In this document: piece by piece, positions 2,461 through 51,823 of the stretch | Layout of the letters: every line of letters starts with the position of its first letter | How positions within the stretch are numbered: position 1 is the stretch's first letter | Notes under the pieces: model-generated | What the model was told of the DNA's origin: nothing | What the model saw: the letters and a program-made list of their open reading frames with translations, nothing else | Databases searched by the model: none | Translations under genes and position numbers: made by a program | NCBI GenBank assembly: GCA_030390025.1 | Contig: CM059444.1 | Location: forward strand, 35,340,001-35,404,000 | Direction of reading: 5' to 3' | Source of the DNA: Squalus acanthias | Taxonomy: Eukaryota | DNA length: 64,000 nt

Positions 2461-2497
2461 CAGTCAGGATCTGATCAACAGGTGAATTGTGGACTCT

Positions 2498-2607
2498 TTT
2501 TTCCAGTTCTGACGAAAGGTCTTCGACCTGAAACGTTAACTCTGTTTCTCTCTCCACTGATACTGCCTGGCCTGTTGAGTTTTTCCAGCGTTTTCTGTTG
2601 TTATTAT
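2498..2607 (+). mobile_element. Penelope-like terminal-repeat fragment with minimal hammerhead core, 17-bp TSD
   Basis: Flanked by exact repeats GGTGAATTGTGGACTCT (2481-2497, 2608-2624); same repeat recurs near 21820, 32420, 39014 and 51690. Confidence 0.75.
2505..2541 (+). ncRNA. Minimal type I hammerhead ribozyme motif
   Basis: AGTT-CTGACGA-A-AGGTC-TTC-GACCT-GAAA-CGTT-AACT: both core boxes, 5-bp stem II, palindromic ACGT stem III, 4-bp stem I. Confidence 0.65.
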
Positions 2608-3669
2608 GGTGAATTGTGGACTCTCGCTCACAACTGGCGAGAAAAACCCCAAAAGCTTAAGTTCAACATATCGCCAGAGGTTAATTTTATGGAGGTGTTA
2701 AAGGAAGAGCGGGAGGTGGAGAGGTTTAAGGATGGAAATCCCGATATATTCAAGGGAATTTCAGATTTTAAAATGCATTTTTTTGACACCTAAGCTTAAA
2801 TACTGCCCCCGAAGCATTATTGCCAGGCTTAAATGGCAAACAAGACTTCCAAACACATCACTCAGATCAATGCAGTGTCCTAATACGATAAATGAAAAAG
2901 TAATTCGGCTCAATAAAGCCTTTAAAAGCTGGTCATCATACAAGTGTAGCAGCCGGCGTATCTCTTCCGGGCAAACTGCAACAATATGGTTTTCAGATAT
3001 ATTACATTTTACTCCAAGCAGTTAAAAAACTGTAACTGAGTTTGCTACATTGTAATAATGCCTGAATGAATGGCTGTGTCTGAAACCACATCGAGAAGTC
3101 TACATCAATGAAGTGTGAAACTAATAGTAGTTATTTACAACTGCCAAAAACGTGTCTTCTAAAATCTTTGTATTTATATTCATATTTCCAAGCTAAAATA
3201 AAATAATCTAAATTAGAGTATTTACAATTAAAATTAGACCAGGTTACAGAAAGAACAGATGAGTGACGACAACTGAAACTGTAATGTCATTGCAGTTGTG
3301 ACTGATATCAGACCAACAGCTGACAAGTGTGCACAGTATATCAGTTTCATGCAATGTACCCAATGACTTCCTCCGTTGCTTTGGTAATCCTTTCATCAAA
3401 ATGAGCAGCCAACTCGAGTGCTTCTAAACCTGTATAAATTATAAAGTGTTATTTACTATAGCTTCAAACCCAGGCATGTAATTTAGAAACCAGATGGAGA
3501 GTATTAAGAAGTGCAATTAAATGTAATTGTAATTCATGATTTCCAGAATAAATTTGAATATATTACTGTTGTAACCCTACTTTAATACATGTTTATCAGT
3601 TGGTTATTATCAAGTGATTCGAGATTCAACATCAAATTTAAGGTTTTCTGTCACCTTTTTAAAATTAGT

Positions 3670-4030
3670 ATAAACACTTGGAAAGGGTGCAGAGGAGATT
3701 TAATAGAATGTCGACAACCAAATCTGGAAAAGCTGCTGGTCCAGATGGTGTTTACCCAGAATTCCGAAAAGCACTGGGACCCAAAGCAAAGAGATGGTCG
3801 ACCTCCTTCTTCTCTGAGGTACTGGCAACTGGTAAAATTCCACCTATTTGGAGGGAGACTAAAATAATTGCTCTCCTGAAGCAGGGGAAGAATGCTTGTG
3901 AAGCCTCCAGCTACCGCCCGATCTCCTTACTTTGCACTTGTTATAAAGTGTGACATGACTGCTGCCAACGAACCGGAAGCGGTTGATAGTGCCACAAGTT
4001 GACCAATTTCCTATGCAACAGCCAAATATA
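3670..4030 (+). mobile_element. Degraded non-LTR retrotransposon RT fragment (not the CR1 family that follows)
   Basis: Translation KAAGPDGVYPE...IPPIWRETKIIALLKQGK...SYRPISLL is typical of the LINE RT N-terminal region. Confidence 0.7.
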
Positions 4031-4035
4031 GAGGA

Positions 4036-48200: not shown

Positions 48201-50347
48201 GTGTAAGACGGTACAGGAGCAGTGGTGTACATTCAAGGAGGTATTTTACAACTTTCAAGAAAAATATATTCCACTGAGGAAAAAGAGGCGTAAAAGAAAA
48301 GAGAGCCATCCGTGGCTAAGTAAAGTAATAAAGGATAGTATCCGACTGAAAACAAGGGCATATAAAGTAGCCAAATCTAGTGGGAGGATAGAAGATTGGG
48401 AAGCATTTAAAAGCCAGCAAAGAATAACTAAAAGATTAATTAAGGGGAAGATAGATTATGAAAGTAAACTAGCAAAAAATGTAAAAACAGATAGCAAGAG
48501 TTTCTACAGTTATATAAAAAGAAAAAGGGTGGCTAAAGTGAATGTTGGTCCCTTAGAGGACGAGACCGGGAAATTAGTAGTGGGGAACACGGAGATGGCA
48601 AATACGCTGAACAAATATTTTGTATCAGTCTTTACAGTAGAGGATACTAAAAATATCCCAACACTGGACAAATGGGGGGCTATAAGGGGGGGAGGAGCTA
48701 AACATGATTAAAATCACCAAGGAGATGGTACTCGGTAAGATAATGGGACTTAAGGTGGATAAATCCCCTGGACCTGATGGCTTACATCCTAGGGTCTTGA
48801 GAGAAGCAGCGGTAGGGATTGCGGATGCATTGGTGGTAATTTTCCAAAACTCCCTGGATTCGGGAAAGGTCCCAGCAGATTGGAAAACTGCTAATGTAAC
48901 GCCCTTATTTAAAAAGGGAGGTAGACAAAAGGCTGGAAACTATAGACCAGTTAGCCTAACATCTGTGGTTGGTAAAATGTTGGGAGTCCATTATTAAGGA
49001 AGCAGTAACAGGACATTTGGATAAGCATAATTTAATCGGACAGAGTCAGCATGGTTTTATGAAGGGGAAATCATGCTTGACAAATTTGCTCGAATTCTTT
49101 GAGGACATAACAAACAGGGTGGATAAAGGGGAACCAGTGGATGTGGTGTATTTGGACTTCCAAATGGCATTTGATAAGGTGCCACACAAAAGATTACTGC
49201 ACAAGATTAAAAAAATCACAGGATTGGGGGTAATATACTGGCATGGGTGGAAGATTGGCTATCTAACAGAAAACAGAGAGTTGGGATAAATGGTTCATTC
49301 TCAGGTTGGCAATCAGTAACTAGTGGTGTTCCACAAGGGTCAGTGCTGGGACCCCAACTCTTTACAATCTATATTAACGATTTGGAGGAGGGGACCAAGT
49401 GCAACGTATACAAGTTTGCTGACGATACAAAGATGGGAGGAAAAGCATTGAGTGAGGAGGACATAAAAAACCTGCAAAAGGACATAGACAGGCTAAGTGA
49501 GTGGGCGGAAATTTGGCAGATGGAATATAATGTTGGAAAGTGTGAGGTTATGCACTTTGGCAGAAAAAATCAAAGAGCAAGTTATTATCTAAATGGAAAG
49601 AAACTGCAAAGTGCTACAGTACAAAGGGATCTGGGGGTCCTGGTGCATGAAACACAGAAGGTTAGTATGCAGGTACAGCAGGTGATCAGGAAGGCCAATG
49701 GAATCTTGGCTTTTATTGCAAGGGGGATGGAGTATAAAAGCAGGGAAGTCTTGCTTCAGTTATACAAGGTACTGGTGAGGCCACACCTGGAATACTGCAT
49801 ACAGTTTTGGTTTCCATATTTAAGAAAAGATATACTTGCTCTCGAGGCAGTTCAGAGAAGGTTCACTCGGTTGATTCCGGAGATGAGGGGGTTGACTTAT
49901 GAGGAAAGGTTGAGTAGGTTGGGCCTCTACTCATTGGAATTCAGAAGAATGAGAGGCGATCTTATCGAAACATATAAGATTGTGAGGGGGCTTGATCGGG
50001 TGGAGGCGGGGAGGATGTTTCCACTGATGGGTGAGACTAGAACTAGGGGGCATAATCTTAGAATAAGCGGCTGCCGTTTCAAAACTGAGATGAGGAGAAA
50101 CTTCTTCACTCAGAGGGTAGTAAATCTATGGAATTTGCTACCTCAGAGAGCTGTGGAAGCTGCGACATTAAATAAATTTAAAATGGAGATAGACAGTTTC
50201 CTAGCTGATAAGGGAATTAAGGGTTATGGGGAGCGGGCAGGGAAGTGGACGTGAGTCTAGGTTCGGATCAGCCATGATCCTATTGAATGGCGGAGCAGGC
50301 CCGAGGGGCCATATGGCCTACTCCTGCTCCTACTTCTTATGTTCTTA
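42275..50347 (+). mobile_element. Full-length CR1 LINE (5' UTR, ORF1 zinc finger/leucine zipper + SGNH esterase, ORF2 APE-RT, 3' tail), split by a nested insertion
   Basis: ORF1 from 42652 (CxxC...CxxC, HVGTND, WDGLHL); ORF2 YLNARSIRNK...ITET breaks at 43879 and resumes as WLRGDHDWELNIQG at 47550, ending at 50254. Confidence 0.9.
43880..47549 (+). mobile_element. Inner CR1 LINE (partial ORF1 esterase + full ORF2 + 3' tail)
   Basis: [46 protein letters not shown] tail. Confidence 0.92.
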
Positions 50348-51235
50348 TGTAATACCTCACATTTATCTGTGTTGATCATTTGCCAATTATATGCCCATTC
50401 TGCAAGTTTATTAATGTCTTACTGTAATTTGTTGCAGTCCTCCTCAGTATTAACTATTCCCCCCAATTTGGTGTCATCCGCAAATTTAGAAATTGTGTTT
50501 TTGATTCCAAAGTCTAAATCGTTAATATAAATTGTGAACAACAGTGGTCCCAGCACTGATCCTTGTGGGACCCCACATCCCACCTTCTGCCACTCTGAAT
50601 AGCTCCCCTTTACCCCTACTCTGTGATTTCTGTCTTGAAGCCAGCTAGCTATCCATTCTGCTACTTGTCCCCTGACGCTGCATTCTCTGACCTTGTTCAT
50701 CAGTCTATTATGGGGTACCTTATCGAAGGCCTTTTGGAAATCTAGATATATTACATCTACTACATTACCCTTGTCTACTCTCTCTTCAAAGAATCCAATG
50801 AGGTTAGCCAAGCAAGACTTTCCCTTTTGAAATCCATGCTGACTATTCATTACTATGTTTTTGGTTTCTAGATATTCTTCTATTTTCTCCTTTAGTAGGG
50901 ATTCCATTATTTTTCCTACCACCGATGTTAAGCTGACTGGTCTAGAATTCCCTGGACATATTCTATCCCCCTTCTTAAATATAGGTATTATGTTAGCTAT
51001 CCGCCAGTCCTCTGGCATTACACCTTTTTCTAACGAATTATTAAATATGCGAAGTAATGCCTCTGCTACCTCTTCCCTAGATTCTTTTAAAATATGTGGA
51101 TGCAATCCATCCGGACCAGGGGTTTTATCCTCTTTTGAGTTTGATTAGTTTATTTAATATATCCCCTTTTTTTTTTTAAATGCACTTACCTCATTACTAA
51201 TCTCATCATCCAATGTCATGTCCACCTGTTCTATC
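50348..51235 (-). mobile_element. Outer CR1 LINE, 5' part (RT domain)
   Basis: ORF 50419-51105: [33 protein letters not shown]. Confidence 0.9.
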
Positions 51236-51691
51236 TCTTTACTGTTACTGTTCTATTTACCTGTACTGCCCAAATGCACCAAATGGTGCCATCTGACAAT
51301 AGTCATGTTACTGCAGCGAATTTACGAGTGCTCAAGATCTCAGAGGAACCCCAAAACACCTAGTCTACATGGTCCATATAACCTGGCATCATACTCCTTA
51401 ACTATCCAACAGCACAAGTCCATCAGTCTAAAGGAACAAACTTCTTATTCTGGAAAATACAATTTCATCATTCACTATAACACAGGATTCTGGGTATGGT
51501 TTCATTTCTAGCCATTATACTGCACTACCAATCTCTCTCTTTTGACAGAGGATCCTCACTGAGGTTAGTGCAGCCAATATGGGTTGAGAATGACCTGCTA
51601 TTTTTGCACTTAATTGAAGCCAATATTGTCATTAGCCCCATTTGAAAATTATCCTAGGAGAAGAGGTTTAATTGAAGAATTCTTCAGGTGT

Positions 51692-51823
51692 ACAAAAGCA
51701 AAATACTGCAGATGCTGGAAATCTGAAATAAAAACAGAAAATGCTGGAAATACTCAGCAGGTCAGGCAGCATCTGTGGAGAGAGAAACAGAGTCAACGTT
51801 TCAGGTCGATAACCTTTCGTCAG
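51692..51823 (-). mobile_element. Penelope-like repeat fragment with hammerhead core
   Basis: Minus strand CTGACGA-A-AGGTT-ATC-GACCT-GAAA-CGTT at about 51795-51823, followed by the shared repeat body. Confidence 0.7.

Follow-up and report, generated by a model that had tools for sequence, protein, structure and literature searches.

The window analysed here is a 64,000-nucleotide stretch of the Squalus acanthias genome (assembly GCA_030390025.1, contig CM059444.1, forward strand, positions 35,340,001 to 35,404,000), in which short repeats with hammerhead ribozyme sequences are dispersed. We conclude with high confidence that these repeats are 5'-truncated stubs of the pseudo-long terminal repeat (pLTR) of an endonuclease-bearing (EN+) Penelope-like retrotransposon, likely a Neptune element, intact 3.2-kb units of which are present elsewhere in the genome. 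The family is a very abundant new representative of a known class, and both the class and its hammerheads were already known. Our search found no published paper devoted to such a shark family or to the accumulation of its 5' ends discussed below; subscription journals, Repbase entries and preprint supplements, which lay outside this search, may already cover the family.

The origin of the stubs is indicated by the longer genomic copies of the family. These share more than 1.3 kb upstream of the hammerhead motif, and this upstream region contains, on the strand of the hammerhead, an open frame with YIDD, CxxxxCxxC and GIY-YIG motifs. At locus L041 head-to-tail units, 99.9% alike, are repeated with a period of 3199 bp and a hammerhead is found at each junction; partial tandems occur at loci L042, L043, L044 and L073. 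The single open reading frame (ORF) of L041 comprises 971 aa from its first ATG and encodes a reverse transcriptase (RT) followed by a GIY-YIG domain, the matches to both Pfam models (RVT_1, E 2.4e-5; GIY-YIG, E 6.2e-4) being below Pfam's cut-offs. The ORF displays DKG, YIDD, a CX4CxxC linker (residues 837-845 of P0001) and GIY-YIG, and the linker pattern recurs in 18 of 19 aligned relatives. A protein search of the genome returned 80,915 candidate places; the 110 that were scored are all 94-100% identical, and nine of them lie in open frames of 1004 aa. The abundance of the family was estimated from a random sample of 95 blind 10-kb stretches (950,000 bp), which yielded 44 family arms and a family coverage of 18,384 bp (about 1.9%). 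Extrapolation of these 44 arms to a genome size of 3.7 Gb gives about 170,000 arms, and two exact 44-mers have 16,939 and 10,666 genome matches. A previous sequence-only reading of the window had proposed a link to Penelope-like elements and assigned the motifs to the minimal, dimer-type class of hammerheads; both proposals are borne out by the ORF-bearing copies, the hammerheads at the tandem junctions and the descriptor used below. The longer copies linked to GIY-YIG and RT ORFs, which it recommended looking for, were found, with the ORF on the hammerhead's strand. Its view of a non-coding, ribozyme-bearing mobile family is not supported as far as a separate family is concerned: the short copies run into the RT/GIY-YIG ORF when the longer copies are followed.

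The order of the domains (RT, then a C-terminal GIY-YIG), the CX2-5CxxC linker and the DKG motif are shared with the EN+ elements Neptune and Nematis, and so are the partial tandems, the inverted 5'-truncated arm, the tail of 30-40 bp and the heavy 5' truncation (PMC8557442). Membership in the Neptune clade, judged from the linker and not from an RT tree, is likely because only Neptune and Poseidon have been found in vertebrates (10.64898/2026.07.22.740005).

In the window, the core CTGACGA-A-stem II-GAAA-CGTT starts at 2509 and 21825 on the plus strand and at 39107 and 51823 on the minus strand. A loose form of the core pattern matches 14 times compared to 5.9 +/- 2.6 expected, a number that none of 100 shuffles reached. 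The copies belong to one family: their alignments with the copy at 51823, 95-106 nt in length, have 86.5-89.7% identity and E values of about 1e-31 to 1e-34. Positions within the element are numbered from C3 of the hammerhead (= 0), and the predicted cut lies between +28 and +29. The copies and their parts are as follows.

2481 to 2497, plus strand: 17-bp target-site duplication on the left of copy 1, which may include junction microhomology.
2498 to 2607, plus strand: copy 1, a solo 5'-truncated pLTR, about -11 to +97, without tail.
2505 to 2541, plus strand: hammerhead of copy 1, of the minimal type I and the one complete example in the window, with stem I at 2505-2508/2538-2541, the core at 2509-2515, an additional A at 2516, stem II at 2517-2521/2525-2529, GAAA at 2530-2533, CG at 2534-2535 and the predicted cut after 2537.
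2608 to 2624, plus strand: right target-site duplication of copy 1.
21688 to 21918, plus strand: copy 2, a pLTR fragment of an older subfamily, about -130 to +100, in a PDHB intron, sense.
27602 to 27759: copy 6, a decayed back-to-back pair (27663-27602 on the minus strand, 27736-27759 on the plus strand) in the last PXK intron, core gone.
32409 to 32553: copy 5, back-to-back arms with a hairpin fold.
38999 to 39013: first target-site duplication of copy 3, 15 bp.
39013 to 39214: copy 3, back-to-back arms in a PXK intron.
39216 to 39230: second target-site duplication of copy 3.
51692 to 51823, minus strand: copy 4, sense in a PXK intron, a tailed solo pLTR that spans C3 (0) to +132.

Four copies had been credited earlier with a preserved hammerhead. 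Their core sequences are real and form one family, but a complete hammerhead is found only at 2505-2541, where the GUU cleavage triplet had been placed correctly at 2535-2537. Our descriptor of the minimal hammerhead, which requires both stem I and stem II, accepts one motif in the window (2509, plus strand) and none on the minus strand. The core boxes, stem I, stem II, the palindromic stem III and the NUH triplet are all present in the master element, in copy 1 and in 24 of the 53 ungapped arms, close copies in which the variation of the hammerhead was followed; copies 2, 3 and 4 fail. Stem II of copy 2 (core at 21825) contains a mismatch, and a 4-nt deletion takes out the 3' strand of its stem I. 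Copy 4, about 120 bp below the PXK exon 52020-51946, starts at C3 and thus lacks the 5' strand of stem I; a target-site duplication was looked for at this copy and not found. The two arms of copy 3 (minus, 39109-39013, -2 to +94; plus, 39107-39214, +21 to +129, with tail) form an inverted pair that folds to a hairpin of 34 pairs (-60.5 kcal/mol) spanning GAAAC-GUU-AAC, so that the core is sequestered. The degenerate site previously suspected near 32470-32505 is indeed family sequence, but it is the junction of the two back-to-back arms of copy 5, neither with a full core: the minus arm extends to 32484 from +2 with the GAAAC region deleted, and the plus arm (32485-32553) begins at +10. The more decayed sixth pair had been overlooked. 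An Rfam search of the window gave no hammerhead match at E<=5.

Sequence comparison indicates that the hammerhead motif is conserved in the master lineage. The triplet is GUU in 21 of the 24 complete arms and GUC in three, 31 of the 53 arms have A-U and 18 have G-U as pair 10.1-11.1, and the loop of stem II is variable. The pLTRs of metazoan Penelope elements carry minimal type I hammerheads with a conserved G-C at 10.1-11.1, whereas the shark motifs have mostly A-U or G-U there, together with a stem II of 5 bp and a predominance of GUU; the available part of that work makes no mention of sharks (PMC4209133). Among distant relatives of the ORF (80 metagenome loci, 29-62% identity over the best segment) we found 18 motifs, 13 of them on the strand of the matched ORF; 20 shuffles gave 0-1 per strand. 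The stems of these motifs have other sequences and are still paired, and their stem III consists of CG or CCGG, in two cases of TG. The fold of the monomer, that of the complete copy 1 included, favours pairing of the core with the cut site (-9.1 versus -5.9 kcal/mol), and folding of the motif as a single strand is no better than that of shuffles (z -0.6 to +0.8). In published work, cleavage was absent for minimal motifs on their own and weak for dimers (PMC4209133); the anole motif needs protein for cleavage and its element inserts without a need of cleavage (PMC11167929). Presumably, selection acting on the master element maintains the hammerhead, which would function there as a dimer with the assistance of protein.

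The anole element, PAc, resembles the shark family in several respects: its hammerhead overlaps the ORF start, its tail is set by two internal copying start points, unprocessed RNA is its main template and no read ends at the cut site. It differs in belonging to the Poseidon clade, and its start sites were mapped in vitro, whereas those of the shark family are read from genomic 3' ends only (PMC11167929). As regards the ORF start, in the youngest subfamily, whose triplet is GUC, the long frame has its first ATG within the catalytic core (CUGAUGA; L041 2399-2405; L044 2402-2408); the CUGACGA subfamilies are without this ATG. In the same youngest subfamily N7 and H17 change in such a way that the competing inactive hairpin keeps its pairing.

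An inverted arm, a tail and a target-site duplication make up the typical Penelope layout (PMC3846280). In the 44 random arms the 3' ends cluster at +87..106 and +129..140, about 35 nt apart, and eight head-to-head and two tail-to-tail pairs are present. Duplications of at least 9 bp flank 31 of 60 anchored copies and two of the six window copies (17 and 15 bp at copies 1 and 3). The stubs were likely pasted in by the RT together with the GIY-YIG endonuclease of the element itself. By analogy with the green-anole element, the protein would nick the target and begin copying inside the RNA at about +97 or +133 (PMC11167929); an early stop of copying would leave stubs of 100-140 bp, and two copying events, or a fold-back, would produce the inverted pairs.

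The short copies could alternatively constitute a non-autonomous family of the retrozyme type or of the type of short interspersed elements (SINE), with a short or circular RNA of its own and a borrowed Penelope protein. This is very unlikely, even though the copies that extend as far as the core end there in about half of the cases and thereby give the size class of 100-140 bp, and a preprint derives animal retrozymes from pLTRs (10.64898/2026.07.22.740005). The same preprint defines retrozymes as tandem arrays with at least two hammerheads, and such arrays number zero among the 44 random arms. Same-strand neighbours within 1.3 kb were found neither among these arms nor in the window; therefore, the random sample holds no retrozyme-like arrays. 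Moreover, the 5' ends scatter over some 30 nt and extend up to full length, the stubs and the ORF-bearing copies have subfamily marks in common, and the core upstream of the cut site is retained, unlike the start point that a cleaved or circular unit would give. The non-LTR retrozymes resemble the shark family in their type I hammerhead, their pLTR-related sequence and their occurrence in a cartilaginous fish, but they are tandem non-coding arrays, whereas the stubs of the family are dispersed, either solo or inverted, and their sequence continues into that of a coding element (PMC7229834; 10.64898/2026.07.22.740005). We rejected membership in this group, as the tandem short-unit array is absent from the random arms and from the window and coding capacity is present in the longer copies.

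Several points weigh against the derivation of the stubs from a Neptune element with a conserved hammerhead. The CX2-5CxxC linker, the basis of the Neptune call, is common to Nematis too (PMC8557442), and re-mobilisation of stubs from short transcripts is possible for some copies on sequence alone. The stem changes among the 53 close arms are one-sided only, with no two-sided change. A sister subfamily with a link to the same ORF has G-C at pair 10.1-11.1 in 487 matches, for which the search pattern itself demanded G-C. As for the distant relatives, the motif lies within 700 nt in only 8 of the 28 that reach 300 nt past the ORF, and their pairing is partly by construction because the descriptor demands it, position and strand being independent.

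Two further forms of the family were observed in the genome. A rearranged variant, which differs in its 3' end and in an altered core region, recurs at unrelated loci (L221, L222, L229, L231, L234 and L158), possibly inside another repeat. One family copy belongs to a larger tandem array, in which it is found no fewer than 13 times at intervals that are multiples of about 4 kb (G000:C911:385773-459648).

The points at which copies begin bear on the question of whether the copied RNA had been cut. In a first sample of 30 copies chosen by a downstream anchor, 28 of them unsplit, 13 of 28 starts fall at -13..+17, a zone defined on this sample itself, compared to none of 15 in the adjoining 31 nt on the upstream side and none of 28 at +18..+45. 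The zone was then preset for a repeat on an older subfamily. It held 12 of 23 starts there, versus 2 of 11 on its upstream side (Fisher p 0.076) and 5 of 28 on its downstream side (p 0.016). These p values are generous: four split copies were excluded, both samples consist of the first matches of one contig, and some arm pairs represent a single insertion. A start upstream of +29 means that the template RNA was not cut at that hammerhead; thus the beginning of about half of the copies just upstream of the cut site suggests, as far as the sequences go, uncleaved templates with a start near the ribozyme.

A cleavage footprint, in which cleaved RNA is copied and 5' ends pile up at +29, was rejected. 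Whole-genome counts of the pattern "two mismatches, then element" are 1,056 at +25, 111 at +27, 132 at +28, 218 at +29, 41 at +30, 198 at +31 and 1,212 at +33, on a comparison base of about 43,000 anchors extrapolated from 11 matches in 950 kb, and contain no peak at the cut site. Inspection by eye revealed true junctions in 12 of 24 loci at +29 and in 9 of 16 at +31; the others are small indels, duplications and later insertions. We also discarded an apparent cluster of starts at +27..33, which is partly due to insertions that split copies and to two loci picked by the +29 pattern. A pyrimidine tract and CAG directly before the motif resemble a splice acceptor, and an acceptor of this sort is present in Drosophila Penelope (PMC4209133; PMC2377424). 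The copies nevertheless lend no support to a spliced leader: a distant exon is joined at the motif in 0 of 24 copies with non-matching upstream sequence, and five sense matches proved to be the native upstream sequence of older subfamilies.

One tentative reading, possible if short of probable, is that the RNA of the element starts at about -14 to -4 and that the protein, starting internally (+97/+133) on the 5' leader, runs off its end and so mass-produces stubs of 100-140 bp from uncleaved RNA. The transcript start of Drosophila Penelope is likewise inside the pLTR (PMC2377424; PMC6765202). As far as the pile-up of 5' ends alone is concerned, it is just as possible that the copied DNA folds back on the hammerhead stems and synthesis ends there, the pile-up then having nothing to do with an RNA start. 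Self-priming has been proposed for junctions of this kind (PMC3846280), inverted pairs contain 14 of the 25 pile-up arms, and at 6 of the 24 loci examined at +29 (L153, L159, L161, L167, L169 and L172, independent inverted insertions) position -4 in one arm is joined to +29 in its partner via four complementary stem I bases. However, 6 of the 25 pile-up arms are solo with duplications of at least 9 bp, where the product of a fold-back is absent, and the starts become sharply fewer beyond about -14 on the upstream side (2 of 26 over the following 31 nt).

The host genes of the window were delimited as well. PDHB lies on the plus strand (Pfam Transket_pyr and Transketolase_C), and its GT..AG joint 17170->22197 places copy 2 inside the intron 17171-22196. 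PXK lies on the minus strand, with exons at 56012-55926, 53266-53180, 52020-51946 and 27455-27312, and spans copies 3, 4, 5 and 6; the best matches of its last exon are PXK homologues from sharks, rays and chimaera. PDHB and PXK stand tail to tail (24541-27500), and single contigs in two runs cover both 3' ends, hinting at overlapping 3' untranslated regions. A BTB/POZ gene, which from synteny we take to be KCTD6, occupies 437-1120 on the minus strand. Copy 1 is not intronic and lies upstream of this gene on the opposite strand; including its duplications (2481-2624) it adjoins the GC-rich start region of the gene, so that upstream antisense transcripts would hold the hammerhead in sense.

The gene strands and exon joints confirm that three cores are sense to PDHB or PXK introns, as had been noted from the sequence. 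From this it had been suggested that such cores could cleave the pre-mRNA, which would alter host expression, and the abundance of the family could supply partners in trans. We hold this to be extremely unlikely. None of the three intronic cores passes the descriptor and one is held in the -60.5 kcal/mol hairpin; the motif needs a partner; cleavage was absent from minimal motifs tested singly and slight in dimers (PMC4209133); and even the complete copy 1 favours the pairing of core with cleavage site. All 4 of the 4 runs compared show the exons joined over the PDHB intron with copy 2, in assembled contigs whose RNA status was guessed, no run being recorded as RNA. The hammerheads of the stubs are thus likely passengers, mostly broken, that do not cut the RNA of host genes.

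Other repeats were encountered along with the family. Elements of 741-858 bp with GGGC..GCCC-type inverted ends are inserted inside the hammerhead core, directly after GAAAC (L078, L171, L210, L218, L220, L237, L241, L244, L247 and L248), and several duplicate 3-bp GTT, the cleavage triplet. Ends of these elements account for 9 of 14 loci inspected at +25, which corresponds by extrapolation to about 680 of the 1,056 matches. The presence of these DNA transposons at the cleavage triplet is probably a DNA target preference; from the 3-bp duplication we presume that they are PIF/Harbinger-type miniature inverted-repeat transposable elements. In the window, diverged fragments resembling long interspersed elements, which may be CR1-like, are found at 44753-50349, 34790-36108 and 5400-9200, and a 414-aa open frame at 47467-48708 resembles an AP endonuclease and RT region.

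The family is large and young and its open frames persist, so that it offers junction statistics on whether Penelope hammerheads cut the RNA that is copied. The genomic record points to mostly no cutting of the copied RNA, in agreement with the one in vitro study. If the proposed RNA start is true, the stubs, in their tens of thousands, would record in the genome where the transcript starts, hammerhead cleavage would lie outside the history of the template, and -14 to -4 would be the place to look for the 5' end of the RNA.

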